A DNA stretch of 64,000 nucleotides from Thermofilaceae archaeon (GTDB lineage Archaea; Thermoproteota; Thermoprotei; Thermofilales; Thermofilaceae), in contig JAWCCZ010000004.1 of NCBI GenBank assembly GCA_038861545.1, positions 32,001 through 96,000 of the forward strand, in the 5' to 3' direction. The notes under the pieces are model-generated. The model was not told the DNA's origin, did no database searches, and saw nothing but the letters and a program-made list of their open reading frames with translations. Numbering within the stretch: the stretch's first letter is position 1; each line of letters begins with the position of its first letter. Of this stretch, positions 2 through 24,535 are shown piece after piece. The position numbers and the translations under genes were made by a program.

Positions 2-898
2 GCTTTTAGCGACGTACAAGTGGAGAAAGCTAAAGGGTTAGCCGTTAGGTTTGGAGGCAGGGCATACCCGAGTTGGCGCGAAATGCTTGAACGGGAGCAA
101 CTCGACGCCGTTTTCGTATGCCTGCCCCCTTTCGCCCATGAAGATGAAATTGAAGTTGCCGCTGAAAAGGGAATTCACATTTACATTGAGAAGCCTATAG
201 CGTTGGATATGGCTAAAGCTTGGAGCATGGTTCGCGCAATCGAAAAATACGGTGTAAAAAGCCAGGTCGGGTACCAGATGCGTTTTTCTCCCGCCGCTGA
301 GCGGGCAAAAGCAATCATAGATTCCGGCGCGGTTGGTAGAATAGGCATGGTAACTGGCTCTTATTGGTGTCGCTTTATACGCACAGACTGGTGGATCGAC
401 CGCTCTAAAAGCGGAGGGCAGATAGTTGAGCAGGCCACGCACCTCTACGATGCCTTAAGGTGGCTGTGCGGTGACGCGCGCAGCGTCTACGCTTTTATGG
501 ACAGGCTTTTCTGGAATGTCGAGGGTATGAGCATAGAGGATGCAAGCGGCGTTCTCATCCGGTTCAAGTCGAACGCAATTGGTTTAGTGTCCTCAACAAC
601 CGGTGCAGTACCCGATCAATGGTGGTTCAAGTGGTCTATAGTCGGTTTAGACGCAACCTTAGTATCAGACAACCCGGATGAAGTGACTGTTTACTACACC
701 TCCGACAAACCAGTCCGAGTTGAGACGTTTCGAGAACGGGGGCGAGACCCCATGTTGATGTCGGAGAAGAACTTTATCGATGCTATCCTCAAGGATCAGC
801 CTACGAGAACCCCAATCATCGAAGGGGCGAAGACCCTGGAGCTAACTTTGGCTGCTGTAAAGTCCGCTGATACTGGTAAGCCTGTAGACATTGAATAA
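2..898 (+). CDS. Gfo/Idh/MocA family oxidoreductase (5' end probably outside window)
   Basis: LDAVFVCLPP..H, IYIEKP motif, VGYQMRF, SGGQIVEQATH; frame is open upstream of the called GTG to the window edge. Confidence 0.9.
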   Translation, partial: AFSDVQVEKAKGLAVRFGGRAYPSWREMLEREQLDAVFVCLPPFAHEDEIEVAAEKGIHIYIEKPIALDMAKAWSMVRAIEKYGVKSQVGYQMRFSPAAERAKAIIDSGAVGRIGMVTGSYWCRFIRTDWWIDRSKSGGQIVEQATHLYDALRWLCGDARSVYAFMDRLFWNVEGMSIEDASGVLIRFKSNAIGLVSSTTGAVPDQWWFKWSIVGLDATLVSDNPDEVTVYYTSDKPVRVETFRERGRDPMLMSEKNFIDAILKDQPTRTPIIEGAKTLELTLAAVKSADTGKPVDIE

Positions 899-950
899 CT
901 ACTCAAAACCACCGGCTGATACCTGTTCCAATGTATAGAGGTGAACCTGA

Positions 951-2021
951 ATGAATAGCCGAGAGAATTACCTACGTGCAATAGATTTCAAGTATCCAGA
1001 GAGAATTCCGGCAATTATCAGCGTCTTCTGGCCAGTGTGGAACACTCACCGTGAAAGCCTAGAGAGAATAGCTGAGCAGTATGAGTGCCTCTTTCCCGGC
1101 TTCCATAAGGGTTTGATACCCTATGAGGTAGAGAGAGGGGTAATATACGAGAAGAGAGTTTTTACAGATCCTTTTGGTTGCACATGGCTCTTTAATGTAA
1201 GAGGATACCAAGGTCTAGTGGTTGGACATCCTCTTGAGAACTGGTCCGCGTGGAATAGTTACAGTTTTCCAGACCCGGACAAAGGGTTGCCCATAGAGGG
1301 GGGAGGATTAATTCCATGGGAGCAAGTTTACGAGAGCATGGATCAGGCGAGAGAGGTAGGGGGGCCTGTGGTTGCGGGGATGCCGCATGGATTCTTTTTT
1401 CAACGCCTGTACTACTTAAGGGGTTTTACAAATCTATTGAAAGACTTCGTCCGTAAGCCGCCGCAAATATACGAGTTAATTAACACGCTAGCAGAGTATA
1501 ACTTGGAACTGGTTGACCGTCTTCTCAAGTACCCCGGAGTAGACGTAGTAAGCTTTGGCGATGACTTAGGTACGCAAACGCGCATGCCGATCAGCCCCTC
1601 AATGTTCAGAGAGTTTATTTTCCCTACGTACCGTTTAATATTCTCCAGAGTTCGGTCGAGGAATGTTAGAGTTAAACTGCACACGGATGGACACGTCGTT
1701 GAAGTCTTTGATCAGCTATTAGAAACTGGAGTAAATATACTCAACATACAGGATCGGGTAAATGGGCTTGAAAATGTTGTCCGGTTGAGAAATAAGGTGT
1801 GTGTCGAGCTCGATATCGATAGGCAGCGCTTGATCCCGCTGGGGACTCCGATTGATATCGAAATGTATGTAAGAAAGGTTATCGATCTGCTTGGATCGGA
1901 GAAAGGGGGGCTTATGCTATACGCTGAAGTTCATCCCCCAACGCCTCTGGAGAATATCGTGGCATTAGCTGAGGCATTGATGAAGTATACGAGACTTACC
2001 TTCAAGAAAGCTTACCAATAG
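951..2021 (+). CDS. Uroporphyrinogen decarboxylase (URO-D/MtaA-CmuA) superfamily protein
   Basis: DPFGCTW, LRGFTNLLKD, FGDDLGTQ..PISP.MFREF, LHTDG and terminal HPPTPLENI motifs. Confidence 0.8.
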   Translation: MNSRENYLRAIDFKYPERIPAIISVFWPVWNTHRESLERIAEQYECLFPGFHKGLIPYEVERGVIYEKRVFTDPFGCTWLFNVRGYQGLVVGHPLENWSAWNSYSFPDPDKGLPIEGGGLIPWEQVYESMDQAREVGGPVVAGMPHGFFFQRLYYLRGFTNLLKDFVRKPPQIYELINTLAEYNLELVDRLLKYPGVDVVSFGDDLGTQTRMPISPSMFREFIFPTYRLIFSRVRSRNVRVKLHTDGHVVEVFDQLLETGVNILNIQDRVNGLENVVRLRNKVCVELDIDRQRLIPLGTPIDIEMYVRKVIDLLGSEKGGLMLYAEVHPPTPLENIVALAEALMKYTRLTFKKAYQ

Positions 2022-2343: not shown

Positions 2344-4551
2344 TTACATTACTAACGGCTCTACTTCAACTAAGATATTATGCGGTTCCAACCCTCTACG
2401 TAACACAGCCCGACCGCGAATCCCTCGACGGAACCAGGCTAGCTCGCCTGAACCCAGCGCCATGTAGATTTGGGTCATGGACACATAGTCGGGATCGCTA
2501 TGGCTTAGAGCAAGCTTCCAGCCAGCTGTCCTTCTGAAGCTTTCCGGCACATCCCCCCAGTCATGAGTAAGCAGTATCACGGCTAGTCCGAATTTTCTTA
2601 GCATCCTTGCCGTAGTAACCACCTCTGGTTCTAGGTAACCTTCAGGCGGTCTCATGAAGAGATGAGCTTCATCTACTATTAGGAGCCATCTTGGTTCGCT
2701 AAGGCCAAGCTTTAAGGCGTGGTCGCGCATTTGGGCTAGCGTCAAACCAAATGTGAACTGCTGTATTTCTAAAGGCATAGACTTATACTCACCTAAAGCA
2801 CTGCTACCCATGCAGAGCACTAGAGGGCGGTTCGCCTCAAGCAAGTAGCGCAAGCTAGTTACAGGTTTGCTGTAGTAGGGTTCTACACGTCTTAACTTCC
2901 ATGATAAACTAGAGTCTCTAGAATTTTGAATCAAGCTTACGAGATCCCTCACTCCGCTGTCTAAGCACCTTCGTAGGATTTCTACCTCGTAGTCGTTAAG
3001 CGGAGAAATGTACCTTATGGACTTCTCTAGATCCTCCAGCCTACACTCGAGCGGATCAATAGGTCTATCAGCTAGATCCACGATTTCGAAACCGTAGTAG
3101 TTTGCGAAAGCCCTGTATTCGCCTGAGGGATCAACTATAACTGGCACGATTCCCTGTTCAACAGCTCGAACTGCCAAAGCGCGTGCGGTAGTGCTTTTAC
3201 CTGAACCCATAGGTCCTACGATTAAACCATGAACGTTCTCCAAGGCGTCAATTTCCAGATATACTTTCTCGCTTTTACGTGTACCGCGACCCAGATAGAT
3301 AGCTCTAGGCGTTCTACGGGTAGCCGCTCTAACGAAGGCATAAGGTGACAGCCATGCAAGCTGGCTGCTAACTTGAAGGGAGGAGTTTGATCCTCCCGGC
3401 AACCCTAAAATTGCCCTGGCCAACTGTAAAACAGCCTTCCTACCAAATAAAGAATTGACCTGAAAGCTTTGCTTAAGTCCAATCGATTCAAGCCTCCATA
3501 CAGGTCCTTTTGAGAAAAATTCTACCCTAAATGGCATCTGTCCTTCTTCAACTGCTCTGTAAATCTTGAATACTGCAACCGCCTTAAATTCGTCGCTTAG
3601 CTTGCTAGCTCCAGCTCGGCCAGCTTCCAACACTTCTAAAGCCTTAGAGGCTTTAGCTTGAAGCTCTGCAAGATCCTGAGGAATTACTAAGGCTACTATG
3701 GGTTCCTCGTATTGTGTGAAAAGTCTCTGAAGAATCCTTAAGCTCGACCCAAGGCTCCCAGCTTCAGGAATATCATTGGTCAGGGAGCTTAGAGAAATCA
3801 GTGGCATAAAACGTAAAACTATTCTTCCGCCTTTGACAAGCTTAAGTTCTTCGAAGATTATTGGAATAGGAATTAAAATAATTAAGATAAGCCCGGGAGC
3901 TAGAAAGTAGAGTAAAATGAGTGTTAAGAGATTTGAGAGAAGAACGTAGGGTAATGTGAACCCGTAGTTGCTCTCCTCTAAAGAAACTAACTCGGGGAGA
4001 ACTTCTGAGGGATTAACTAGAGATGTATATACACCGTAAACAGTAAGTCGTCGCCTGATCTCGGATACAAGCTGGGAAAAACTACTTATCATTGCGTTTA
4101 AATCTTCTTTATAGATCGCATTTATTTTCAGGTAGTAACTATAATTTTCCCGGCGAGGGAGCGCGATCACGTTGAAAGTTGTATTAGGAATATGTAAAGC
4201 GGATATAACTCTGGAAGCTTCTTCGCCGAGCTTGATATCGCTGTCGTGGAAATCTATATCTATAACTTTTAAGAATGAACTTAATATGCAGAAATTTCTT
4301 TTCTTAAATGATATTATTACATAGTTTTTCTTAAAAATAAGTTTATCTAAATTTAATAAAAGTAAAGCCCTCTCCCCGTAGAGGATCTCTATTAATGTTT
4401 CCCTGTTCACATAAATAAAATAAAAACCAAATAAAGTAGCTAAAAAGGTTAAGGGAACAGGCGTACCGGAGGCAAGGGCTAAGAGCATCGCTAGCATTAA
4501 AGCGAAAAACAGGAGCATTTTTTCAAAGCCGGGCAAGTACATAAAAATCAC
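2344..4551 (-). CDS. Membrane-anchored VirB4/HerA-like ATPase (CedB/TedB-like)
   Basis: N-terminal TM segments; Walker A GPMGSGKST, IVDPSGEY, Walker B LIVDEAH, RKFG arginine finger; last gene of the CedA/pilin run. Confidence 0.8.
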   Translation of the reverse strand: MIFMYLPGFEKMLLFFALMLAMLLALASGTPVPLTFLATLFGFYFIYVNRETLIEILYGERALLLLNLDKLIFKKNYVIISFKKRNFCILSSFLKVIDIDFHDSDIKLGEEASRVISALHIPNTTFNVIALPRRENYSYYLKINAIYKEDLNAMISSFSQLVSEIRRRLTVYGVYTSLVNPSEVLPELVSLEESNYGFTLPYVLLSNLLTLILLYFLAPGLILIILIPIPIIFEELKLVKGGRIVLRFMPLISLSSLTNDIPEAGSLGSSLRILQRLFTQYEEPIVALVIPQDLAELQAKASKALEVLEAGRAGASKLSDEFKAVAVFKIYRAVEEGQMPFRVEFFSKGPVWRLESIGLKQSFQVNSLFGRKAVLQLARAILGLPGGSNSSLQVSSQLAWLSPYAFVRAATRRTPRAIYLGRGTRKSEKVYLEIDALENVHGLIVGPMGSGKSTTARALAVRAVEQGIVPVIVDPSGEYRAFANYYGFEIVDLADRPIDPLECRLEDLEKSIRYISPLNDYEVEILRRCLDSGVRDLVSLIQNSRDSSLSWKLRRVEPYYSKPVTSLRYLLEANRPLVLCMGSSALGEYKSMPLEIQQFTFGLTLAQMRDHALKLGLSEPRWLLIVDEAHLFMRPPEGYLEPEVVTTARMLRKFGLAVILLTHDWGDVPESFRRTAGWKLALSHSDPDYVSMTQIYMALGSGELAWFRRGIRGRAVLRRGLEPHNILVEVEPLVM

Positions 4552-4569
4552 TTGAGCTTTAGTTACCGG

Positions 4570-7500
4570 TTATGTCAACTCATGTTGCAATTCTTGGAGG
4601 AGGTTTTCACCTAACTCCCTAAGTTTACATGCGCTATCGCATAAACTTAAGAGCACGGCATCAAGTGATTGTATAATGTTCACCATGTCGTAGAGGTCTC
4701 TGAATAGCAGCTTTGACCTATATTCATAAGCCTCAATGCGAATAGCTCGGACTTTCTCTTCAACTTCTCTTGATATACGAACAGCTTCCTCCACGGTTTT
4801 GTAGACCTTCATTGTTTCTCTACGTTCGTAATCCCTAAGAGCCGGCGAGTGCCACGGTTGAAGCGGAATCATATAACAGTTTAAAAATTTCATAGCCTCT
4901 CCAAGGTTTTTAGCAGCCGCTACGCCTTCTCGACAGGCTCTAGCGACAAAGCGGCCGAAAACTGAGTATAATTCGTCAAAGGACTTCTCTAAACTTAGGC
5001 GAAATATCTGCTCGATTATCCATTGACCTCCACCTTCTTTAGATACTTTTGCTGATGCATATCCAAGCCAGTAAGGGTCTCCACTTAATATATAGAATTC
5101 CACGGCTTTCTTTGCGTCTACACCAGCTTTTTCGAAAGTTTTCCAAAAACCTTCAATAATTTTCAGTTCTTCACGAGATAAATAAAGTTCATTTACATCG
5201 TTGATAAAGAGCTGTAATGTCTCTAGAATACTATACAATTGGTCACTCTGTTTAACTTGATCCAGAGCCATTCTAAAACTTTTTAATAGTTTCTCGGTAC
5301 CGGGAGGTAATTCGCCCACAAACCAAGGTTTATGCCCCTTCATGGTCTCTTGAACTAATCTTAAAGCTAGGTAGCGCCAACTCTCTCCTTTTTCGAGCGA
5401 GGCAAGCCAGGTAACAGCGAGACTAAATCCAGTACCTAAAGTTTCGAGTAATTTCTCATCTACATTGACCTTGGAAAGCCCTGAGAACAACGCTGTTTTA
5501 ACTTCATCGTCCGGTCTGAATATTCCAAGTGAAGCTGAGTCGGCTACTCTTAGAGCAATTTCGGGTTTCTCGCTTAGCAATTTCAATGTCAGAGTGCTAG
5601 CGTTGCCTATAGCACATGTAACTAGCGCAACTCTCCATACAAGCTCCCCTACCTCCAGCTTATCTGGTTCTGTAACCAATGCAACTCGCATTACTGATGG
5701 GGGTACGGTTATCGTGGTAAGAGCTCTAAAAAATCTTTGTATATCCTTAGGTTTCGGTTTCCCTCCTTGAAGCACCGTTTTTGATATTATATCTGAATAA
5801 GTCTTTAGAGAATCGATCCCCCTACAGCCCCCCTTATTAAGTAAGCCTACCCTAGTGGGGATCATTGATGCAAGTTTCACCTCCTGTAAAGTTCTTTTTA
5901 CAAATTTTGAAGACAGTGGTGTTGCAAACGGCTTCATGTTAAGCATCCAGGCTACTGCGTATAGCATGTCGCTTGCCGCTAACAATTTACTACCAACTGG
6001 ATGAAGCAAAGCCGCGAATAGTCGCTCTTCGTCCCGGAGCAAGGGATTCGTAACTTTGAATGCTGCTCTCCGCAACAGCTCTCCAGCCATATATAGAATA
6101 AAAGGCAGGGGGTAGGATTGCCTATGTCTCCACATAAACCTCAACATAGATTTCCCTACATGCGTGATCCTACCTTTAGGTGAAGAATTGATAGTCGCGA
6201 GGGTGGCTCTGTGAAGTTCCTTTAACGTACGCATATTATCTTCTAACCTTTTTCTTAGATCATATAACTCGTAAAGGTGAGGGCCTACAGCCATGCGGGA
6301 TAAACTTCTTCCCCTCTTTGTATTAATTAACGATTCGATAAAACCCAGTGCTGCCCTACCAAAGTCCTCAAGCAGATGAATTGATTTACTCAGTGGAATT
6401 AGAGGAATAACTCCTTTTATTGCAGTACCGCCGAAAATCCAACTTAGCATGTCGACACCTACAAATGATGCAATTAACGCGCTAGCAATTAAAGCAAGGA
6501 GCGAGATTCCATTAATTATATCAAGGGTTTCTTCTTTAATCAAATTTACATATGAGGGCTGGATTATGTCCTCCAGTAAAGTATCATAAAATAGCCCTGA
6601 AACCACGGACTCATCGAGCACTGTAAAATTAGCTATAACCAATTCAGGCTCGCATGTGCCTATTCCGCTAACCAAGGGAAGAGGCACTGTAAAGGTTGAG
6701 GCACTGGACCCCGTAGTGATTGGTCCAACAATAGCTGGTCGAGTCACGTTTCCAAAATATCTGACATTAACAGTCACAGAAGCAACATTTGTTTTAGGCC
6801 ATAGACCTTGCGAATAGAGAAGACGTTTATTCCATAAAATAGCGTGAATTCCGGACTGGTTACCATATAGACACCGGTTAGTTTCCGGGTTAACCATTGA
6901 GAGAGGTAGAGAGGCGTTTAGCACTCGAGCATATTGATCAAACCACTTAATTGCCTCGATTCTAGAGTCGGAGAAGATAAAATATTTTCGTTCCACTTGA
7001 CAGCTGAAAGCTGGTATAACTTTTAGCTTTGAACCGTTAATTGTTATTTCGCTTTCACCAGCGTCTATGATTGTAGGTTTACCGTCCTGGCATATACCAT
7101 CTGCGTTAATATCACCTTCGATCCAGATGGTGACATCTGTAACTGTCACATTAAGAGAATCAACTGATCCTTTTTCACTCTCTGGGGAAAAATCGTCAAG
7201 GACTACGTTACTCTGTAGTATATTCACTAGGCCTATTCGTGGATCAGCTACACCCACTACTTCATGGTTTAACAAATAACCTCCAACGGGGTACCATGGT
7301 AGCGATTGCCCGTACCTTTCTGAGCCTTCGTAAAGGAAAAAGCCTCGGCCAACCCATACTCCCCAGCCCTTAGGTGGGCTACCGTTAAGCTGAGCATTAT
7401 CGCTAAAAGCTACAATACCTTTACTGACTTTTATGCACACTATCGTGCAATTCTTAGATGATGAGCAGAAGTTGCTCCATCGTAAAGCTCCTTCCTCAGT

Positions 7501-8436
7501 GTCAATTGCCTGAGCTGAGAATTCAATAGGAAAATTACAAGGTTTCACATGGAAAGTGATACCTTCAAATGGCACGCTCAACCCGGAATAATATAATCCG
7601 ATTACCTCGTACTGGTCCACATACTCCATATAAGGCACGCCCGCCTGTCTCGCTGCTATACGACCGCTCGAGCTTCTATATACTATGATAAAACCCGGTG
7701 GCGCTTTAACACTTAACTCCTTAACGTTAAGTGTCGTGCTTAAACTCACGACTGGTACTGTTAGTTCGACTTCAAATTTTAATATTCCAATTTCCTTTAC
7801 TACTTCTTTTACAGGCTTGGGCTTCACGGCTATTGCGATACAGTTAAGCACAAGAGGTATCAGCAGTCCAAAGCCTACTCCGAGGGCCACCAATGTTGCT
7901 CCGAATCTTCTCGTAGTCCGGGAAACTAGGAAAACGCCACCAGTTGTAATGAGGAGTGGATATAAAAAATCTCCTAGATCGGCCACTACCATGTAAACCT
8001 GGCCGATGAATCTAAATACTTGTAAAGAGAATAAAGATGCGTTAAGGATAGAACTTATAGTATTTATGCCTGCATATGATAGCGAAGCTATTAAAGCTAT
8101 TGTGCCCCCACTCATTATAGATGAAATCAAAACAACAGATAAAATAATAGAATTAAGAGTAGAAAAAGCCAGTGCTCTTTGAATATTTACAGACATTGCT
8201 TCTTCGCATGATTGTACCGCTTCCCTACCGAGCCTTCTTGTCAATTCACTGGAAAGAATAGAAAAATCAACTCCAGCTAGACTGGCAACAATTTCTGCAA
8301 TATTGAGAGTTGTTAAAACTACAGCTAAAACAAAGTAGCCTACTGCAACAGTTAAACGATCCTGCTCTTTTCTATATCTCCAGGCTATAAATGCTGCTTC
8401 CGCTAAAAGTACATAGCCTAGTATGTTTTTCCACAT
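4570..8436 (-). CDS. Giant CedA/VirB6-like membrane protein with large extracellular insert and long helical C-terminal tail
   Basis: Multi-TM N-terminus with motif LITTGGVFLVSRTTRRFGATLVALG matching the neighbouring CedA-like gene; beta/Cys/NxS-T-rich middle; further TM near aa 640-670; ~600 aa helical tail. Confidence 0.6.
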   Translation of the reverse strand: MWKNILGYVLLAEAAFIAWRYRKEQDRLTVAVGYFVLAVVLTTLNIAEIVASLAGVDFSILSSELTRRLGREAVQSCEEAMSVNIQRALAFSTLNSIILSVVLISSIMSGGTIALIASLSYAGINTISSILNASLFSLQVFRFIGQVYMVVADLGDFLYPLLITTGGVFLVSRTTRRFGATLVALGVGFGLLIPLVLNCIAIAVKPKPVKEVVKEIGILKFEVELTVPVVSLSTTLNVKELSVKAPPGFIIVYRSSSGRIAARQAGVPYMEYVDQYEVIGLYYSGLSVPFEGITFHVKPCNFPIEFSAQAIDTEEGALRWSNFCSSSKNCTIVCIKVSKGIVAFSDNAQLNGSPPKGWGVWVGRGFFLYEGSERYGQSLPWYPVGGYLLNHEVVGVADPRIGLVNILQSNVVLDDFSPESEKGSVDSLNVTVTDVTIWIEGDINADGICQDGKPTIIDAGESEITINGSKLKVIPAFSCQVERKYFIFSDSRIEAIKWFDQYARVLNASLPLSMVNPETNRCLYGNQSGIHAILWNKRLLYSQGLWPKTNVASVTVNVRYFGNVTRPAIVGPITTGSSASTFTVPLPLVSGIGTCEPELVIANFTVLDESVVSGLFYDTLLEDIIQPSYVNLIKEETLDIINGISLLALIASALIASFVGVDMLSWIFGGTAIKGVIPLIPLSKSIHLLEDFGRAALGFIESLINTKRGRSLSRMAVGPHLYELYDLRKRLEDNMRTLKELHRATLATINSSPKGRITHVGKSMLRFMWRHRQSYPLPFILYMAGELLRRAAFKVTNPLLRDEERLFAALLHPVGSKLLAASDMLYAVAWMLNMKPFATPLSSKFVKRTLQEVKLASMIPTRVGLLNKGGCRGIDSLKTYSDIISKTVLQGGKPKPKDIQRFFRALTTITVPPSVMRVALVTEPDKLEVGELVWRVALVTCAIGNASTLTLKLLSEKPEIALRVADSASLGIFRPDDEVKTALFSGLSKVNVDEKLLETLGTGFSLAVTWLASLEKGESWRYLALRLVQETMKGHKPWFVGELPPGTEKLLKSFRMALDQVKQSDQLYSILETLQLFINDVNELYLSREELKIIEGFWKTFEKAGVDAKKAVEFYILSGDPYWLGYASAKVSKEGGGQWIIEQIFRLSLEKSFDELYSVFGRFVARACREGVAAAKNLGEAMKFLNCYMIPLQPWHSPALRDYERRETMKVYKTVEEAVRISREVEEKVRAIRIEAYEYRSKLLFRDLYDMVNIIQSLDAVLLSLCDSACKLRELGENLLQELQHELT

Positions 8437-8437
8437 G

Positions 8438-9238
8438 TTAAACCCTCAGTCTAGCTATTAGTGACTCGGGTAAGCCACCAGCAGCGGTAACGGCTCCGAT
8501 ACTTAAGGCCGCGGCTACAGTAGTGGAAAGCGTGAACCACGCTACGCAATCTCCCATTGCTTTAGCATCGTTTATTACTTCTTCTACCGCCCCTGCAAAA
8601 TATTGCGCTATCCCTGCAATCGGGATTCCAATGTACTTGAACCTTAACTCAGCAGCTGCACTATTCAAGTAGGGCGCGGCTACACCTACATAGACCTGGA
8701 GAGTAACAATACTAATCGCTAATGTAGGGCCTACCCTTTTAAACCTACTTATTCCTGTTAATACGATACCTAGGCTAGCTAGCGGTGAACCATAGATAGA
8801 ACAGAGGCGCGAGGCAACAAGGAGCGCTGTGCTGACCGTCATTAGGTATGTAGCGAAAAAATTTGCTAGGCTGCAAGCTGCATGCCATGTAGCAGCTAAA
8901 GGAGCCAATATACCAGTCAATGTAATATCTCGGGCTACATTAGCTAAATCCATTACGTAAGTCGTGTACCTATCCCTCGTTTGAAGGCAAAGTTGCTCAG
9001 CTTCAGCTGGGGATACTGAAAATATACCAAAAGCCGAAAGTATTATCTGTGAAGAAAGCAGAATAGCAGCCAGGATAAGGCCTAAAACCGCACTTTCAAA
9101 GGCATCGTATATTGTGACAAACCCTTTAGCTTTAATCTGTGGTGAAGGATTACTCAAGAGCCATGCTCCATAGAGTACCTCTATTGCAATGAAGGCGAAT
9201 GTAAAACCATATGCTGTCAAATCTATGCTGACTACCAT
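8438..9238 (-). CDS. CedA/TedA (VirB6-like) DNA-transfer channel protein
   Basis: 266 aa, ~6 TM; GAWLLSNPSPQIKAKG..IYDAFESAVL and LGIVLTGISRFKRVGPTL resemble conserved CedA segments; lies between a pilin and a VirB4-like ATPase. Confidence 0.7.
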   Translation of the reverse strand: MVVSIDLTAYGFTFAFIAIEVLYGAWLLSNPSPQIKAKGFVTIYDAFESAVLGLILAAILLSSQIILSAFGIFSVSPAEAEQLCLQTRDRYTTYVMDLANVARDITLTGILAPLAATWHAACSLANFFATYLMTVSTALLVASRLCSIYGSPLASLGIVLTGISRFKRVGPTLAISIVTLQVYVGVAAPYLNSAAAELRFKYIGIPIAGIAQYFAGAVEEVINDAKAMGDCVAWFTLSTTVAAALSIGAVTAAGGLPESLIARLRV

Positions 9239-9283
9239 AGCAATCGTAATTATAAACAGTTAAAAGATTATTTATAATTATCG

Positions 9284-9667
9284 TCACGGCTGCATGAATA
9301 TTTCGTTCCAACTAACAGTGAAAGGAGTTCCTTGAGGTAATAGGCCTATTGACACTAGTATGTCAGGTAGCCAGGCTACTAAGGCTAGAGAAAGCAACCA
9401 AAATATTGGACCTTCTAGGGTTTCGTAAAGGTCTCTGAGAGCACTACCCGAGTACACGCCACCGACTTGCTTTTTAAGTCCAGCTATCGCCGCTCGTATT
9501 AGTGAAGCTAGGAAAACTAATAAACCTGTTATTGTTATTGCTAATTTAATAGTTAGAATTGCGTAGCTTTGTAAAGCGTTAATATTTACAATGGGACCTT
9601 GGGCTTGAATAAGAGGTAAAGTAAACAAAACAAATACAACAAAAACTGCAATTATATTGCCTTTCAT
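9284..9667 (-). CDS. VirB2-like pilin (TedC/CedA1-like)
   Basis: Sec-type signal peptide (..PLIQA|QG) followed by two hydrophobic helices joined by a basic loop; directly upstream of the CedA-like gene. Confidence 0.6.
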   Translation of the reverse strand: MKGNIIAVFVVFVLFTLPLIQAQGPIVNINALQSYAILTIKLAITITGLLVFLASLIRAAIAGLKKQVGGVYSGSALRDLYETLEGPIFWLLSLALVAWLPDILVSIGLLPQGTPFTVSWNEIFMQP

Positions 9668-9692
9668 AATAATTAAATAGAGGTATTATATT

Positions 9693-10064
9693 TTAATTTT
9701 TCGATTGTTCTACAGGCATTATTTCCACGCAGTTCTTCTCGTTGCTGTAAAATATTCTCAACCGCACTCTACCTTTCGGTAAGGTATTTACACCTGTGTC
9801 TTTGCAAGCCTGATAGACCTTAATAGATAACCCGCATTCTTCTGAATATAATAAGATTGTATCCCCCTTCAATATATCTATCTTGGGTAAATCGTACACG
9901 TCGGTTATAGTACCTCTATTAATGGAAATGTATAGAAGGTCCCTTGACAATCTCCTGATATCTATGCATTTATCGTCTAATCTAAGGCTGAGCGCGTTAA
10001 TGGAGCTAATGGTGATACATACCATTGAAACCATGAAAACAATAAATAGAATTGCTTTCTCCAT
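9693..10064 (-). CDS. Pilin-like protein, N-terminal TM
   Basis: N-terminal hydrophobic helix plus small Cys-containing beta domain; in an array of similar genes. Confidence 0.55.
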   Translation of the reverse strand: MEKAILFIVFMVSMVCITISSINALSLRLDDKCIDIRRLSRDLLYISINRGTITDVYDLPKIDILKGDTILLYSEECGLSIKVYQACKDTGVNTLPKGRVRLRIFYSNEKNCVEIMPVEQSKN

Positions 10065-10074
10065 TTAACCACCT

Positions 10075-10698
10075 TTACGGAGGTATTCTTAAAATAATAC
10101 CAAATTCATCTCTCAGCTTAATCCGCTCTGGGACGCCGATTATCCACTTGCAGGGTCCATCTGGTTTTATATCAGCTATTTTCTCCGGGTCGGGGTGTAT
10201 AAGGGGGCATAGTGTAATATTAAAGAAAGGACTAACGTATCGGTGTATGTAGCTCACAGAAAAGCTGACCATATTGCATACTGCGCCCGAAATCGCTTTA
10301 ACGTATGTGTGTCCCTTGGTTACCCTTATCTCCACCTGAATCTTCACTTTAGTGTTTCCTGTTAGGGTTCTAACTTCGAAATCGGTTACATTAATTAGGT
10401 ATGTTGTCTCACCGTAGCTGAAGCGAAGTGTAGAGACGCTGAAGTTTGTAACTTCAAATAGTAGTAAGTTATAGCTTTCATTCATTGAATATAGTTGTTC
10501 AAGTAAGCTCTGGAGAACCTCGCTATTGCAGCTTTCTGTAGTTAGGCAAGCTCTTGCTAAGTGAACTAGCATTGCGGCCTGAAGATGCCCACGCTCGTAC
10601 ACGTAGATAGGCTCCTCCGGTAACGTTGAAACTATTGCAATGATTATTACAGCTAAAGCGGTAACGCCTAGTAAGGCAAACTGTGCTGTATGTTTCAT
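10075..10698 (-). CDS. Minor type IV pilin-like protein
   Basis: Class III-like signal MKHTA|QFALLG.. then hydrophobic helix; GTGAGG SD upstream. Confidence 0.6.
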   Translation of the reverse strand: MKHTAQFALLGVTALAVIIIAIVSTLPEEPIYVYERGHLQAAMLVHLARACLTTESCNSEVLQSLLEQLYSMNESYNLLLFEVTNFSVSTLRFSYGETTYLINVTDFEVRTLTGNTKVKIQVEIRVTKGHTYVKAISGAVCNMVSFSVSYIHRYVSPFFNITLCPLIHPDPEKIADIKPDGPCKWIIGVPERIKLRDEFGIILRIPP

Positions 10699-10709
10699 CT
10701 AACCTCACC

Positions 10710-11039
10710 TCAAGGCTTAACGCAAGCCCTAAGGACATCCACGTTGTTAGTAGATACATCAAAGATTGCGAAAGCATAGCAGATGCTTTTCTGGATGGTA
10801 TTGGAAGAAGATAATGAAACCTCATTTACCCATAGCTCGACTAAGTGATCACCTAGCGTGGTAATGGTTAAGTTAACGGCCGTAGCTGTATCCTGGGAGC
10901 ATAAAAGAACCCAGGCTAAAGCTCTTTGAACTGAAACTTGATGAACCGGTGTAATTTGTTTTACAACAATCGCTGTAAAGTAGGTTAGTGCGAGAGTTGT
11001 AATCATTGCTATAGCAAGAGATTCTAGATGTCTCATCAA
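10710..11039 (-). CDS. Pilin-like protein, N-terminal TM
   Basis: MRHLESLAIAMITTLALTYFTAIVV hydrophobic N-terminus, small extracellular domain. Confidence 0.55.
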   Translation of the reverse strand: MMRHLESLAIAMITTLALTYFTAIVVKQITPVHQVSVQRALAWVLLCSQDTATAVNLTITTLGDHLVELWVNEVSLSSSNTIQKSICYAFAIFDVSTNNVDVLRACVKP

Positions 11040-11158
11040 AGTAGGGTTTAACTTTTAAGTCGGTAACTAGAGTCGTAGAGGACATGAATACCTGAACTTT
11101 CAAACTTACCTAAATTGACTTTCTAGTTTTCCGCAATCGAAGCTTACCTAACGTGTAA

Positions 11159-11482
11159 CTAAGTGTCGCAGCCTTCCGAATAATCTCCCATGATTTTAAT
11201 ACAAGCCGGAAAACTAGGTGTGCTGCCTTTAGCATAATGCAAACGCGTGATATAACATTCACCTGCTTGGCAGACCTGTACCCCTCGATCGCTAACCTTG
11301 AATGCAACGGGTTTTGGAAGAATTATTATAATTTCAGCGTCAGTTGGAGAGCTATTTATGGCTTTTGCGACTAATTCAGGGTAGCAGTCGTACTTTAAGT
11401 TCCAAAGCCTTAACGCTAAGGAGAATAATCCAACCATAAGGAAAACTTCAGCCAACGCCACTAGAGTTTCATCAACTGCCAC
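11159..11482 (-). CDS. Pilin-like protein, N-terminal TM (3' end possibly frameshifted)
   Basis: Hydrophobic N-terminus; overlaps upstream gene stop; Cys pairs. Confidence 0.5.
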   Translation of the reverse strand: MAVDETLVALAEVFLMVGLFSLALRLWNLKYDCYPELVAKAINSSPTDAEIIIILPKPVAFKVSDRGVQVCQAGECYITRLHYAKGSTPSFPACIKIMGDYSEGCDT

Positions 11483-12065
11483 AGAATACCACCTTCAATT
11501 TTCGTAACCTAACTTCGCGATAGCCTTTCCAGGTATAGATAACGTTTCCATTAACTGCAATTAAACCAAAGTTCCGTGAGAATAAATGACCTACATATGT
11601 ATCGGCTGCCTGAGTTACCACTAAGCAACCGTTACTATGAGAAATATCTGTTGCAACGTACGTTATGATTAGATGCACCCCGTTTTCAATTACGTCGACA
11701 GAACTGATGACTCCTGCATGTGTGCTGTTGCCCCATACCTTCCATAATGTAGGAAGACCTTCTTCAAAGGGGTTTTGAGGAGAGCCGGGTGAGCCGCTTG
11801 CCTCATATAATACTAAAACTCTCTTTAATGGGAAAGTATAGTTAACGCCATCTATACATGAATCAATCATAAAGTCTCTTTCTTCTAGTGTTACCGATAA
11901 TCCCTCTGGCATATTAGCATAACCACGCGTTAGGGCATCCCTTAAAATAAAAGCCACTTTATAATCGTAACTGGGTTTGAAAGCCATTATTCCTATTACT
12001 GTGAACATTATCATGAAGGAGACAACAATTATAGTTAATGCCAATACTAGGTAATTCACTACCAT
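11472..12065 (-). CDS. Pilin-like protein, N-terminal TM
   Basis: Long N-terminal hydrophobic helix plus beta-rich domain; first gene of the minus-strand run, TATA ~25 nt upstream. Confidence 0.6.
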   Translation of the reverse strand: MVVNYLVLALTIIVVSFMIMFTVIGIMAFKPSYDYKVAFILRDALTRGYANMPEGLSVTLEERDFMIDSCIDGVNYTFPLKRVLVLYEASGSPGSPQNPFEEGLPTLWKVWGNSTHAGVISSVDVIENGVHLIITYVATDISHSNGCLVVTQAADTYVGHLFSRNFGLIAVNGNVIYTWKGYREVRLRKLKVVFCGS

Positions 12066-12143
12066 ACACTCTTAAGTTACTCCTTAAAATAAAAATCTTC
12101 CTCAAAGTTCTAAAGACCTCTTAGAGATGAGTGACAAGTTACG

Positions 12144-12266
12144 TTAGCTTAAACCCTTCCTTGCGGCTTTCCTTGCTATAAACCCAAGCATGAAGATTTA
12201 CCAATAAACAATAACTAGGAGACCAATTAATGTCACAACTTTTACTGAGAGAACTTGAATGACCAA
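12144..12266 (-). pseudogene. Small single-TM peptide gene interrupted by an in-frame TAA
   Basis: Reads MVIQVLSVKVVTLIGLLVIVYW*IFMLGFIARKAARKGLS*; hydrophobic helix runs across the stop and ends in a basic tail; TTATAA ~30 nt upstream. Confidence 0.4.
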
Positions 12267-12309
12267 AAAATATAATAATATCTTAATTTAACAATTATAA
12301 CTGGTAAAT

Positions 12310-12660
12310 ATGACTTTCAAGAGGGAAGAAAAGGTTGAGAGTGAAAACAAGGATTTCTTCAGAGAATATGAATCTACTAAAGCAAGAATGACTTCTTCGA
12401 ACGCCCATAAAGGACAGACGACAACTCCTGATGCAATAGAAATCCCAATGCAACGGGCGGATAAGTATACTTCACTCGACAGCTTAGTAGCAAGTTTGAA
12501 AATACTTAATTTTGACACAAAACCCCTTGAAGCATTGAGGGATTACGCTAAAAGGTTGGAGGAGGAGGAAAGCCGTCTGCTCAAGGAAATTCAAGATAAG
12601 CAAAGAATCTTAGAGAAAGTTCGTTCTGCTAGAGATATTCTGAGAAAACTCGGACTATAA
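12310..12660 (+). CDS. Hypothetical protein with C-terminal coiled coil
   Basis: 116 aa ORF, heptad-like E/K/R/L-rich C-terminus, 16 nt upstream of the pilus ATPase. Confidence 0.7.
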   Translation: MTFKREEKVESENKDFFREYESTKARMTSSNAHKGQTTTPDAIEIPMQRADKYTSLDSLVASLKILNFDTKPLEALRDYAKRLEEEESRLLKEIQDKQRILEKVRSARDILRKLGL

Positions 12661-12676
12661 TTATAAGTGAATCATT

Positions 12677-14176
12677 ATGCCCATCGGAAAGACTGCTCAA
12701 AAAATTCGGAAAATAGTACCAACGAGAGAAGGCAAAAATATACCTGAGGAAAGATCCTTGCAGCTACAGAATACGCTGTTAGCTAAAGAGAAAGACTGTG
12801 CTAAACAGTCCACCGAAAATCAAGTAAACGATAACGTCTATTCAACTTCATCATTTAACACACTACTTCAGCTGGGTTCTTTTACTACCACCTATCTTCA
12901 GCCAAAAGTAGAGTTAGGACAAACATTAAGTAAAAAGAAAGAAGGACTTCGTAAACCCAGAATGCCTGTAATAAAACTAAAGGAACCCTCAAAACTAGAA
13001 GGTGTTGAGGTACCTTTGCCTCCAATGTCCGGAAAAATCATACATATAACTAGTGGAGATATAGTTTTAGGTGATGGAAAAGTTAGAGTTTATTGCTTTA
13101 GTGAAGGCCCATGGGGGCCGCTGCAACCCCTTGCCGATTACCCCGAAACCCAAGAAATTTTCATTACTGAAAAATCCGGTTTACTCAACATAACTGCCAG
13201 TATTTCTGGAAAAAGATTCTTCGTAGAACTACCGCGAGAACTTATCGCCGAAAGACTCGCACAACGAATTGCCATTATGTCCGGTATGAGACTCTCGGAA
13301 AGGGAGCCGCAGGCTTCGGGAGAATACTGTGGTTGGAGGGTTAACATCTCCCTACCACAGCTTTCAGGTGGGTGGCAGATTGCAGCAGTTAGGGTAGTTA
13401 GAGTCGAACCATTCAAAGAAAATCCACTCCTCCTAGCTAGACTGTTGGCCTTAGCCGCTATGCCCTCATCTATCGCCTTTGTGGGACCACCAGGCTCTGG
13501 AAAAACTACAACTTTAATTAGAGTCTTAAAAGAAATGGTAAGATTGTGGCCTCACCTCAGGGTTAGCATTGTGGAAGAGGAACCCGAAGTTGCTGTGCAG
13601 GTACAGGGTCCATGCGTGATTTCCTATTTCTCCTTCGCTGGCCGTAAAGTTACAGATAATATACGTGCGACAAGGAGGTATGACAGACCCGATATCCTTG
13701 TGGTAGGTGAGCTCAAGGGTGAAGAAGTACCGAGCTGGTTTGAGGCGGCAGGTAGTGGTATACCGGTTTTTACAACAGCCCATAGCGTTACATTGAGTGA
13801 TCTTCTAAGACGGTTAGATTCGCTAATTCAAGCCAATGGTATCCATGGAGCGAGCGTAGTTGATGTTGTCAGAGTATGGGTTATATGTGGAAAAGTCATA
13901 GATTCGATTGGTAGTGTAAAGCGAGACATTTTAGCGGTTTATACTACCATGCCTAATGGGCTTCAGCCTATCTATAAGCCTGGGAGGTATCTTCCAGAAG
14001 ATGAATTTCTGGAATTGCTACCTCCTGAGCTACAGTTATCAATTAATAACGAATACGACTCGGTTGATGTTTACAGCAGCATTAAAGAAGCTCTTGACGC
14101 TACAATAAGTAATGTGCGGTTTGAACACTTAGATTCTATCCCCTTACAAGAGGTGCGAGGACATGAGGCTTTTTAA
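12677..14176 (+). CDS. Type II/IV secretion (TadA/CpaF/VirB11-like) ATPase
   Basis: Walker A GPPGSGKTT, Asp-box-like VEEEPEV, Walker B RPDILVVGELKGEE, TTAHS; WRVNI..P N-domain. Confidence 0.88.
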   Translation: MPIGKTAQKIRKIVPTREGKNIPEERSLQLQNTLLAKEKDCAKQSTENQVNDNVYSTSSFNTLLQLGSFTTTYLQPKVELGQTLSKKKEGLRKPRMPVIKLKEPSKLEGVEVPLPPMSGKIIHITSGDIVLGDGKVRVYCFSEGPWGPLQPLADYPETQEIFITEKSGLLNITASISGKRFFVELPRELIAERLAQRIAIMSGMRLSEREPQASGEYCGWRVNISLPQLSGGWQIAAVRVVRVEPFKENPLLLARLLALAAMPSSIAFVGPPGSGKTTTLIRVLKEMVRLWPHLRVSIVEEEPEVAVQVQGPCVISYFSFAGRKVTDNIRATRRYDRPDILVVGELKGEEVPSWFEAAGSGIPVFTTAHSVTLSDLLRRLDSLIQANGIHGASVVDVVRVWVICGKVIDSIGSVKRDILAVYTTMPNGLQPIYKPGRYLPEDEFLELLPPELQLSINNEYDSVDVYSSIKEALDATISNVRFEHLDSIPLQEVRGHEAF

Positions 14177-14411
14177 CATTTTTAAGAAAGGAGATGAGTT
14201 TGAGATTGAAATCAGGGAAGCCCGGAAGCTTGCTAAAAGAGCGCTAAAGAAGATGAAAGGTATCGAGAAAGCTACCCGGAAGTCCAAGTTCAAGAAAAAG
14301 AAGTGGGGCGAAATACTTGAATTTCTGCTTCCAGAAGAGCTTTTAGATCCTACCGATTATTCTGAAAGCGAGGTAATAGGCTCACATTTTTCCTACAATA
14401 AGGAGCTCTAG
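14163..14411 (+). CDS. Small basic hypothetical protein
   Basis: Overlaps ATPase stop, GAGGTG/GAGG SD upstream; Lys/Arg-rich. Confidence 0.55.
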   Translation: MRLFNIFKKGDEFEIEIREARKLAKRALKKMKGIEKATRKSKFKKKKWGEILEFLLPEELLDPTDYSESEVIGSHFSYNKEL

Positions 14412-15065
14412 TAATCTAACGATAGAAGCATCGAATTCTTCAGAGGTTAAATCAATGGTTTTCTTTAGAGTCTGAGGCGATAGCCTAGCTACGGCGGAAT
14501 CATATGGTATAACCACGTACTGACAACCAGTTTTCTTACAAAAGTTATCTATTACTTTCCTGTAGTATTCCACTATAGTTTGGTAATAAGGTCTAGGTTG
14601 ATTTAAGGCTATTATCACATGTTTATCACCAAATGTATAAAGAGACGTGCTAACTGAGGCCGGATTGGGTTCCGTAACAACAAGAATCGTGTCGGTAACT
14701 TCAATAAGGGGCATATACCTGCCGACAGTATCTACATCGGTTAGCGCTGGAAGATCTATAATTTTAATTTTAAATCCTAGAGATTTTACAAATTCAATTA
14801 CTTCATTTACATTCCTTATAGGTCCTCTATTTACTGATATAGTTAACTTAAGGTCCTTCACGTTTACACTCCTAAGTGATTCACTTGGACTCTCGGAAAG
14901 GTAAGGACCTGAAACTTCTCCAACTAGGTAAGAAGTTGCTCCACCGTCCGCGCTAGCATCTATGAGAAGCGTGGGTACTACAGTTGAAGAAACTAAGCTA
15001 AGAAAAGAGGCTAAAGTTGTTTTACCGGTACCCCCCTTGCTACCGCTAAACGTGGCTACTATCAT
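14382..15065 (-). CDS. ParA/MinD family ATPase
   Basis: Deviant Walker A KGGTGKTT, LLIDAS, IIDLP, VVTEP, VIPYD. Confidence 0.88.
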   Translation of the reverse strand: MIVATFSGSKGGTGKTTLASFLSLVSSTVVPTLLIDASADGGATSYLVGEVSGPYLSESPSESLRSVNVKDLKLTISVNRGPIRNVNEVIEFVKSLGFKIKIIDLPALTDVDTVGRYMPLIEVTDTILVVTEPNPASVSTSLYTFGDKHVIIALNQPRPYYQTIVEYYRKVIDNFCKKTGCQYVVIPYDSAVARLSPQTLKKTIDLTSEEFDASIVRLLELLIVGKM

Positions 15066-15142
15066 AATCTATAATTAAAATAGTATAATAATTTAAACTT
15101 TACGCATATTTACGCTTACTGCAGCTTAATGCGACTCTGAAT

Positions 15143-18100
15143 TTAGAGTCTTGGGGGGTATCTTATTGGTAATGGAATTATTATATAAATCTTGTTGTAA
15201 TTAGAAAATATACCTGACACCGGCTTAAGATATGCTGCTATCCACTTTTCCCTAATACCTATTCCAATGTTTAGTTTATCTTTCGGAATCTTATCTTTAA
15301 AGTAAAATACTTTAACGAGTCTTCTTGATCCCTCTTTAATGTCCCATTCTTCAATCTCGATGATTATATCTGCGTGCCAAGGTGCTTCTCCCAGAAAACT
15401 TTCGCCTACGTTTCCACTCGTAAAACATTGCCAGCCAATGCTCAAGCTATCCGCTTCCCAATTCACTGATACCACAGTTGCTGGTACAAGGGTTACGTTT
15501 ACTGGAGCTGAAAGCTGATATTTAGTCAACCTAGCGCTTGAAGCGGTACCAAGGTTGTGTTGCCATCTGACCCAAATCTGGAAAGGCTGCATGTAGCTTC
15601 CGGTAGAGTTTTTCAAGCCTGCGGGATAGACCTTCTCGTAGAAAAGTAAACTGTCACCCAGGTTCAAGCTATAGGTAACACTATCCTCTCTAAGGCTTGT
15701 AGGCTGGTAGCTCCAAAAGCCTATTTCCCCCTTATATGATTCGAGTGATACTCCTAGCTCTTCTGTAGGTAAGCCTAGTGTCGCATTAACGCTGCTAGGC
15801 GGCTTGTACTTCCACATTAGTGTAACGTTTAACGATACTATAGTTGTTCTACGCCTTAGCTGTGGAGAATACTCTTCAAAACGGTATGATGGTGTTATAT
15901 TTACAATCTCAAGTTGCGAAACTACAACTGGCTGCCGGATCTTTAACCCACTGTCTAAGTGATGGAAAATTAAGTTATATACAGCGTAAGTTACGTTGCC
16001 AATCCAAAGCTGCGACGCATCTACGGTTGAGCTTGCCTGGCTAAGTACAGCTTCTGGGTTCCATGCAACTAATGCCAGAAAATACCAATTTTTGTATAAT
16101 GATGGTATATTACCGTCTATTATTTGAGGGAAAATACCTATGCTACTTGCATTCCATTTAACCACGCACTTCGAACCAGTACACGTCTCACAAGAATCCG
16201 CTACTCTACTCCAGTCTACGGTCATGTTTACTTTCAACCAAGAAAATGGAACGTAAACAACCTCTGAACCATTAGTTAACATGACATAAATTTTGGCACT
16301 ATTATCGGTTACTCTATCAGGGTAGAAAATTGTTACATTTACCATCCACAGCCCAGATAATCCCCATATTCTATTCAGTAAAGGATTTGGTAAACCTTCA
16401 CCTGGTAGGAATATCGATCGATTTGTCAGAAGCATAGGTGAATGGTAAACATAACCTTCGGGAGCGTAACAGGCGGTAATAGTAGTTACGTTACTGGGGC
16501 GTAATCCAAATATTGTACTCCCCTTCACCTCTTGACCGTTAACGTCCCAATACTTTAAAACGAAATTCGTTGAATTCAGCTTAATCACTGACAGGTTTAC
16601 CTTACCTGTACTCCCACTATTATAGATTGTTATATAGCCATTAATATTTATATTCAATGCCGTCTTTGTAGTCCAACGAGTTGAGCCGCTACTTAAGTCG
16701 GTGATCAGGGCAGAACACCTCCAAAGCGGTGCATCCGGAGAAGGGCATATATAAACGTCTATGTCGGGGTTATTCCAAGAGGATCCTATCTTTATCACGC
16801 TGGCTGTCACGTCGTATGTTCCAGAGAAATACTGATTCCATCGATAAATCCCTCTTCCTAGCGTGATGTCTAAGACCCCCTCTAGAATCCTCACTGTAGC
16901 AGTTATCTGTAGGGGAGCAGTGAACATGTACCTGTTACTTACAACGAAACCTTGAGTATTGGAACCGTTTAAGCAAAGTAGAGGAGACACGTAAACGTCG
17001 TCCACTACGCCCTGCAACTGCACCATATCGTTCACCCAAGAGTTCTCAGGTAATGGTGTTAAGATGCGAGCTCGGAGCAACATATTAGGCTCGTATTTGT
17101 AAGCAGCTAAGGTTCCAACAATATAGTTTGCTGTGACACCGCCGGTAACTGTAGCATCCTCCACAAAACCTGTCCAATACCATTGGCTCGGAGATGATAG
17201 TCGAGCGTAACCTGTCCACCACCCTGCGAACTTATAGCCCGGCGCGGGCTGCGCTATGGCGGCATAGGCTGTCATAGCGGTACTAGACCAGCTGCGCACT
17301 CTTATACGGATAGGTTCATTTTTCAACTCTATGTCTAAGCTCTTAACCTCTAAGTCCATGGATCCCTGGTGATAGGTTAACTGGAGCCACCCGTTGCGGG
17401 TGCCTTTCTCGACCCATAGGTCGCCGATACCTTCAGCCTTGTAGTAAACCCTGTAAATGCCCGTCAGGTTAGCCGTGCTCATGGACGCTGTTCCCAGATA
17501 ATTGCGTGTCTTAACGAAGGAAACGTTGCCAGCTAAGCCTCCATTACCGTAAACTGAGTTGAAGGAGTGTGTCCACCCCACATTTAGCGCGGCGTAAGGC
17601 TTAGCATCCGGGTTAACAGTGATCGTGTACAAGTAACTAGAAGCAAGAGATACATTATAAGGGTAGTAGAGAGAGTAGGGACCAACTACTCGAGTATGAA
17701 ACATACCCGTTATAGGTACAATTAACTGTTGATATCTGCTCGGTGGGCTACTTTCACTTACTCTAGGATAATAGGCGCCGGTTACCCAAAACATAGCGGA
17801 ACCTATATCACCGTCTCCTGAGCCCACCTCTCTAATTCCTCCGCCCATGTATACGAATCCCTGAACTTTCCCATAATAGACAGTATAGTACATGGTAGCG
17901 CCTGTCCATCCACAGCCCACGACAGGGATACCAGAGCTCAGTTGTGCTGAGGGCCCGGCGAAACTGTACTGGTACTCAGGTGGATATAAATATACAGTGT
18001 TGTCCGTATCCGGCTGTGTAGGTGGTTTAATCGTCGGATTGTTATTATGGCCTCCAGTAGTTCCACTTTCCCAGCTAAGTGTGCACTCACAACTCTTATT

Positions 18101-20033: not shown

Positions 20034-20185
20034 CCCTCCCCAGTAACATGGAATATAAGCCGGCATGTCTAAGACCCTTACATGCAATTAATAAAAATAA
20101 ATATCAGAGTTATATAAAAATTTTGGAACTAAGTGAACAATCCATATATAGAAAAACTTATAAACTGGAATTTTAAAATTATTTT

Positions 20186-24459: not shown

Positions 24460-24535
24460 TGGCGGGCCCGCCGGGATTCGAACCCGGGATCTCCGGCTTA
24501 GGAGGCCGACGCCTTTCCAGCTAGGCCACGGGCCC
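24460..24535 (-). tRNA. tRNA-Arg (anticodon CCT), CCA encoded, no intron
   Basis: GGGCCCGTGGCCTAGCTGGAAAGGCGTCGGCCTCCTAAGCCGGAGATCCCGGGTTCGAATCCCGGCGGGCCCGCCA cloverleaf. Confidence 0.98.

Follow-up and report, generated by a model that had tools for sequence, protein, structure and literature searches.

A giant membrane protein at a Ced/Ted-like locus of a Thermofilaceae archaeon, a putative extended VirB6-type subunit of a DNA-transfer apparatus

What part is played by a membrane protein of 1288 amino acids (aa) that is encoded among the genes of a putative DNA-transfer apparatus on the chromosome of a thermophilic Thermofilaceae archaeon? The gene lies at positions 4570–8436 on the reverse strand of the window, i.e. 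the whole stretch of 64,000 nucleotides analysed here (GenBank assembly GCA_038861545.1, contig JAWCCZ010000004.1, positions 32,001 to 96,000), and its product is designated P0001. DNA exchange by machines derived from type IV secretion systems (T4SS) is known in archaea, as the Ced and Ted systems, from few lineages and through few components, which are small. These systems have no VirB3, VirB5, VirB8 or VirB10, and it is an open question what connects their membrane platform with the ATPase and the cell surface (PMC9905601, PMC11868833). The gene for P0001 is a real, conserved gene standing in line with genes for a pilin, a 266-aa CedA/TedA-like protein and a VirB4-like ATPase, and P0001 is probably an extended VirB6-type subunit of a chromosomal, T4SS-derived Ted/Ced-like DNA-transfer apparatus.

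The open reading frame (ORF) begins with ATG and continues for 1288 codons with no interruption. A sequence-only reading of the same DNA had described a giant ORF at this position encoding an insert of ~430 aa and a long tail, and this layout is confirmed by the open frame, by hydropathy and by AlphaFold2 (AF2) models. Hydropathy of the protein and of a 15-sequence family alignment placed hydrophobic segments at residues ~1–21, 26–53, 87–110, 110–141, 149–175, 177–205 and 639–671; there is none at 206–638, and none convincing beyond ~671. The six helices of the core occupy aa 1–205 (7822–8436, reverse strand, as for all parts of the gene), as judged by hydropathy, the AF2 helices, VIA-align and hhalign. 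They are followed by the beta-rich insert (aa 206–640; 6517–7821), by helix 7 (aa 641–668; 6433–6516), which would take the chain back to the cytoplasm, and by an all-alpha tail (aa 669–1288; 4573–6432), which is predicted to be cytoplasmic and was delimited by AF2 and hhalign. Helix 7 was located at residues 637–668 by hydropathy, at 639–671 in the family consensus and at 627–667, as a single helix, by AF2, and is also covered by the structural alignments given below. Helices 5 and 6 are joined by a conserved turn, R-x-x-R-R-x-G, which is predicted to be cytoplasmic and in which R176 and G179 are invariant or nearly so. The AF2 model of aa 1–700 has a mean predicted local distance difference test score (pLDDT) of 74 and a predicted template modelling score (pTM) of 0.65, with the hydrophobic core less confident at pLDDT 50–80.

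The core had been likened to CedA, and the whole protein to the extended VirB6 proteins of bacteria. Both comparisons are borne out, the former by profile homology of the core to the CedA-like 266-aa neighbour (see below) and by VIA-align, in which the top structural matches of the core are to TrwI/VirB6. The TrwI alignments reach model residues 665–667 and hence include helix 7. The hydrophobic core of the model has a fold like that of the solved VirB6, the seven hydrophobic segments compare with the at least five helices expected of a VirB6 protein, and a VirB4-family ATPase and a VirB2-like pilin are encoded alongside, both in the window and in the relatives. Examples of extended VirB6 proteins are the RvhB6 paralogues of Rickettsiales, TraG of F-type systems, DotA of Legionella, and the 700–900-aa VirB6 homologues of Gram-positive MPF_FA systems, such as TcpH. 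The class is defined by at least five hydrophobic helices together with large hydrophilic domains in a central or C-proximal position (PMC12857230). P0001 agrees with this published definition, having a central insert (aa 206–640) and a C-proximal tail (aa 669–1288), and the layout is kept in relatives of 783–1654 aa.

Full-length homologues of P0001 with 80% and 63% identity were found in a word-indexed search of 5.8 billion proteins, and the remaining full-length homologues span about 29–36% identity. HMMER, run exhaustively over 1.84 billion representatives, returned 13 clusters only, all of 1064–1654 aa. In whole-genome searches, a single copy free of stops was present in the sister species (64% identity), one uninterrupted copy of 1242–1298 aa was present in each of five genomes of a second Thermofilaceae genus (30–34% identity), and three other genera gave weaker matches. 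The named records of the hosts are metagenome-assembled genomes of Thermofilaceae or Thermofilales, and several relatives come from complete single-contig genomes. That the long ORF arose by an assembly error or frameshift fusing genes for a CedA-like, a secreted and a cytoplasmic protein is therefore refuted by conservation; no evidence in its favour was found, and it retains next to no probability. The same uninterrupted architecture is found in independent assemblies of at least ten genomes, full-length homologues being present in the sister species and in all five genomes of the second genus, and no stand-alone homologue of the core (aa 1–215) or of the tail (aa 691–1288) was found among shorter proteins.

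More distant relatives of the locus were reached through the 266-aa protein, designated P0003; its profile matched relatives in 20 out of 120 genomes from the class, and 13 loci drawn from these were compared in gene order. In 11 of the 13, a pilin-like gene (134–197 aa) is followed by a gene for a polytopic protein of 257–302 aa, a gene for a big protein of 783–1448 aa (truncated by the contig end in one of the eleven), and one or more VirB4-like genes. The big proteins have about six N-terminal helices, a gap of 300–400 aa, one helix and a tail, and match the P0001 family in hmmsearch with E values from 3e-143 to 6e-4. As judged by hhalign, the P0001 family is related to a group of 1021–1196 aa (98.2% over P0001 residues 4–826) and to a group of 783–865 aa (93.3% over residues 2–299), and these two groups are related to one another (98.6%). 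On these alignments, the distant big proteins and P0001 are one family, the conserved unit of which consists of the core, the insert, helix 7 and the proximal tail, and the length of the distal tail varies. Housekeeping genes flanking the locus are syntenic across two genera, which indicates a stable chromosomal locus rather than a recent mobile element. No match to P0001 was obtained by tblastn in 72,556 plasmid records.

The gene for P0003 lies immediately upstream of that for P0001 (8438–9238, reverse strand, as for all four core genes), the ATG of the latter being 1 nt past the stop of the former. P0003 was assigned as a CedA/TedA-like paralogue from its conserved neighbourhood, from its profile and from the ESM Atlas, where it scores 0.93 to a cluster annotated as 'CedA1 domain-containing'; residues 1–215 of P0001 score 0.84 to a CedA1-domain cluster, which is a lead only. 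When 23 cores of the P0001 type were compared with 19 members of the 266-aa family, hhalign gave 96.2% (E 2e-9), the match being confined to residues 137–205 of P0001 and 128–196 of P0003, i.e. to the hairpin of helices 5 and 6 with its arginine-rich turn. No control exceeded 0.3%, whether column-shuffled (thirty) or reversed (one), and an earlier comparison of the core with the 266-aa family using small alignments had given 46%. This hairpin homology suggests that the locus carries two VirB6-like paralogues.

Farther upstream, at 9284–9667, is a gene the 127-aa product of which combines a signal peptide with two hydrophobic helices and is a candidate for a TedC/VirB2-like pilin on the basis of its conserved position and of a family alignment that shows a cleavable leader followed by the two helices. 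The N-terminus of P0003 is related to the pilin family (hhalign 68%, E 5e-5), and the relation was seen also as a hidden Markov model match in a single genome (E 2e-3). A resemblance of the N-terminus to pilins has been published for CedA/CedA1 and for VirB6/VirB2 (PMC9905601). The presence of a pilin-like N-terminus in P0003 and not in P0001 points to P0003 as the CedA/TedA counterpart and to P0001 as a second, extended paralogue.

The fourth core gene, for the 735-aa VirB4/HerA-like ATPase P0002, which has membrane helices of its own, lies downstream of P0001 (2344–4551) and begins 18–27 nt beyond it. P0002 has a Pfam DUF87/HerA match, and its NCBIfam matches to the VirB4-like, CedB and CedD models are weak. 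Its start is probably the ATG at 4542 (MYLPG...) in preference to the GTG at 4551, since the orthologues start at MYLPG. P0002 has two N-terminal membrane helices and a second hydrophobic pair at aa 196–241, which recalls VirB3–VirB4 fusions. No VirD4-like gene was seen at the locus.

In the AF2 model, residues 216–606 of the insert form a beta-rich module, rich in beta-sandwiches, with pLDDT mostly 84–95, which is placed between helix 6 (residues 176–201 in the model) and the helix at 627–667. The sequence-only reading had predicted a Cys- and sequon-rich beta region followed by a transmembrane helix, and this is what was found: the insert of P0001 contains eight Cys residues and eight N-x-S/T sequons, and the tail six and two, respectively. 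Cys324, Cys449, Cys479, Cys522 and Cys595 of the insert are invariant in the eight closer homologues. Across 15 homologues, the inserts contain 144 sequons compared with 29.2 expected from composition (4.9-fold), and the tails 11 compared with 12.9 expected (0.85-fold); single homologues have 6–15 in the insert and 0–3 in the tail. Positively charged residues of P0001 cluster in the loop at 21–27, in that at 170–178, which holds the R-x-x-R-R-x-G turn, and just after helix 7. As only one helix, helix 7, separates the insert from the tail, the two should be on opposite sides of the membrane, and the enrichment of sequons in the insert and not in the tail places the insert outside. Thus, the insert is predicted to be outside the cell, where it would carry the sequon signature of an N-glycosylated domain, and the tail inside, in agreement with the earlier proposal that the two large domains face opposite sides.

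The tail of ~620 aa after helix 7 is all-alpha in the AF2 model of aa 680–1288 (pLDDT 68), with a confident subdomain at ~869–989 and a C-terminal three-helix bundle at ~1153–1287. Its proximal part, to residue ~830, is kept across the whole family. It had been described as a basic helical tail with no recognisable motif, and the helical character stands, as does the lack of a motif, in that no family and no informative fold was matched. The basic character is found in the close clade only: P0001 has 87 K+R and 71 D+E residues in the tail, and the net charge is +8 to +22 in this clade and −16 to −25 in three distant homologues, so that the family as a whole spans −25 to +22. PDB profile search, Foldseek and VIA-align revealed neither a DNA-binding fold nor a DNA-binding motif in the tail. 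A wide VIA-align scan of the tail gave generic matches of the three-helix-bundle or spectrin-like kind to its last 135 residues and barely tested the middle part. Complex prediction for the tail (aa 691–1190) with the cytoplasmic portion of P0002 (aa 245–735) gave a score of 0.00, which argues neither for nor against binding.

Foldseek searches of the PDB with both models of P0001 (aa 1–700 and 680–1288) gave nothing at E 1e-3 or better. Weaker rows, to Cry/Vip3 toxins, Gram-positive pilins and integrins, reflect the combination of a helical bundle with beta-sandwiches and not kinship.

If P0001 is an extended VirB6-type subunit, its core and the 266-aa paralogue would jointly make up a platform or protochannel in the membrane that serves as the base for pilus assembly and as the passage for the DNA. 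Mounted on this platform, the outer module may serve as an extracellular collar or stalk beneath the surface layer, would replace the missing parts of the VirB5, VirB8 and VirB10 types, and possibly makes surface contacts. The tail, the proximal 140 residues of which are kept in all relatives, could reach into the cytoplasm as an arm at which the VirB4-like ATPase or factors that handle DNA dock.

Several observations weigh against this assignment. Pfam, NCBIfam and PHROGs have no family for the whole or any part of P0001 down to E 10, and Pfam TrbL and NCBIfam gave no match even at that level. PDB sequence-profile searches with the giant-protein and 266-aa families returned coiled-coil noise and one stray match only, with nothing relevant to VirB6 for the giant-protein family, and hhalign against eight TrwI-type VirB6 proteins of proteobacterial plasmids gave less than 1%, the alignment being shallow. 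The homology to the 266-aa family is limited to one helical hairpin, and a pilin-like N-terminus was not found in the P0001 core (hhalign against the pilin family, 0.5%). The insert is not hypervariable, the charge of the tail is not conserved in the family, and the roles given above to these two domains are ones that we infer. The topology of the core obtained by counting helices may also fail in the assembled machine, since the majority of VirB6 helices are not embedded in the membrane in the solved R388 structure (PMC12857230). The missing sequence similarity to VirB6 is not decisive, because published archaeal VirB6 homologues are likewise without plain sequence similarity (PMC9905601).

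Given the negative profile searches, P0001 might instead be a scaffold in the membrane or an adhesin at the surface, restricted to this lineage and merely travelling with Ted-like genes. Its likeness to VirB6 would then be that of a generic helical bundle, and the hairpin match, which stands well above its shuffled and reversed controls, would be due to membrane composition or a local duplication; this explanation is considered unlikely. Also doubtful is a more specific version of the proposed role, in which P0001 is a single-chain, envelope-spanning module: the glycosylated insert would be a stalk or collar replacing VirB5, VirB8 and VirB10, the tail would recruit the VirB4-like motor, and the short paralogue would handle the pilin. 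If so, one polypeptide would link the motor, the membrane platform and the outer conduit, which would represent an independent archaeal solution for a T4SS-derived DNA conduit and provide the first function for extended VirB6 domains.

The sequence-only reading had suggested that the outer domain could recognise partner cells and that the tail could bind DNA or couple the ATPase or ParA/ParB. In the strict form of this division of labour, the outer domain mainly recognises partner cells and so sets mating specificity, and the tail binds DNA or ParA/ParB directly. A basic tail in the close clade and an exposed, Cys- and sequon-rich domain agree with this form, and yet it appears improbable. The identity of the insert to the second genus is 32–41%, compared with 19–31% for the tail, and to the closest homologue 77%, compared with 81–82%; an insert conserved at least as well as the tail is unusual for a specificity determinant and argues against a rapidly diversifying one, and no sign of strain-specific diversification was seen. 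The tail charge of −16 to −25 in the distant homologues and the negative search for a DNA-binding fold or motif speak against the function proposed for the tail. Finally, two large secreted proteins encoded at the locus are better adhesin candidates than the VirB6-like insert. They have 1123 and 513 aa (15143–18514 and 18546–20087, both on the reverse strand) and no family match; their relatives elsewhere have a single hydrophobic helix at the start, and their place beside pilin-like genes is kept in distant loci. Assignment of P0001 as an extended VirB6-type subunit is the explanation that we prefer.

The core genes are accompanied by a pilus-like gene set (9693–12065, reverse strand; 12677–14176 and 20655–21872, forward strand), which comprises five small genes for N-terminally hydrophobic, pilin-like proteins, a gene for a TadA/VirB11/FlaI-type ATPase (T2SSE) and a gene for a 405-aa polytopic protein. 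The set looks like genes for an Ups-like type IV pilus linked to the transfer genes, and most of its members are kept in the sister species and also at distant loci. Past the ATPase gene (20–2021, forward strand; loci L012–L014), a gene for a 292-aa protein is syntenic with the transfer locus across two genera, as is, in part, a URO-D/MtaA-like gene, which speaks for a chromosomal system that has been domesticated. A tRNA-Arg gene is present at the opposite end of the locus (24460–24535). The G+C content is ~0.40–0.41 across most of the transfer locus (4001–16000) and 0.43–0.48 in the flanks.

In the loci encoding the short form of the big protein (783–865 aa; L041, L042, L047, L050 and L051, genus g6), the ATPase domain is encoded separately, in an ORF of ~350–395 aa that follows a membrane ORF of ~355 aa. 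The arrangement resembles a VirB4 divided into two parts and recalls the CedB/CedD division (PMC11868833). Two loci of one complete genome (G006, contig C1), at ~1,193,000–1,197,000 and ~1,397,000–1,403,000 (L047, L048), differ in type, one being long (1403 aa) and the other short (818 aa), which indicates that two versions of the system can coexist.

The locus extends Ced/Ted-like systems to Thermofilaceae, a family without such a description so far, and adds a conserved fourth core gene, in the product of which a VirB6-like core is joined to a domain predicted to lie outside the cell and to a large, putatively cytoplasmic arm. P0001 appears to be the first archaeal extended VirB6 found in the searchable literature. 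What the additional domains of extended VirB6 proteins do is not known for bacteria either (PMC12857230), so that P0001, which is compact, conserved and archaeal and has well-modelled domains, would be a useful structural target.

In predicted fold, the core of P0001 is closest to TrwI/VirB6 of R388 (PDB 7o3v, 8rt9 and 8rtd), the central platform of that T4SS. Unlike P0001, TrwI has 342 aa and lacks both a large insert at its centre and a long tail in the cytoplasm, and unlike R388 the Thermofilaceae locus is without VirB5, VirB8, VirB9 and VirB10. Sulfolobus conjugative plasmids encode a large membrane protein with an Smc-like domain beside VirB4- and VirD4-like genes (PMC12857230, citing Erauso et al. 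2006). Like P0001, that protein is big and polytopic, has a long helical, coiled-coil-like cytoplasmic part and is encoded beside a transfer ATPase; it is a possible analogue, no BLAST similarity to P0001 having been found in the plasmid records. With the bacterial extended VirB6 proteins, P0001 shares, besides the class definition, the position beside a shorter VirB6-like paralogue, and it differs from them in being archaeal, in that no sequence relationship was found, and in its insert, a sequon-rich beta module between the last two helices.

In gene content, the P0001 locus is like Ced of Sulfolobales and Ted of Thermoproteales, in which chromosomal genes likewise encode a VirB4-like ATPase, a polytopic protein and a pilin with a signal peptide (PMC9905601, PMC11868833). 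Ted has been described in five genera of Thermoproteales and has the components TedC, TedA and TedB (PMC9905601); Thermofilaceae are outside the lineages described for either system. P0003 shows the hallmarks of CedA, i.e. ~7 helices and a pilin-like N-terminus. CedA, TedA and CedE are described as proteins of ~250–300 aa with 5–7 helices and no large soluble domains, and P0001, with 1288 aa and two soluble domains, is set apart by these descriptions from the compact CedA/TedA format of ~250–300 aa and 6–7 helices. The Ced system of Saccharolobus, with CedA and CedE as two small paralogues of the VirB6-like type (PMC11868833), provides a precedent for two such paralogues in one archaeal system, as proposed here for P0003 and P0001.

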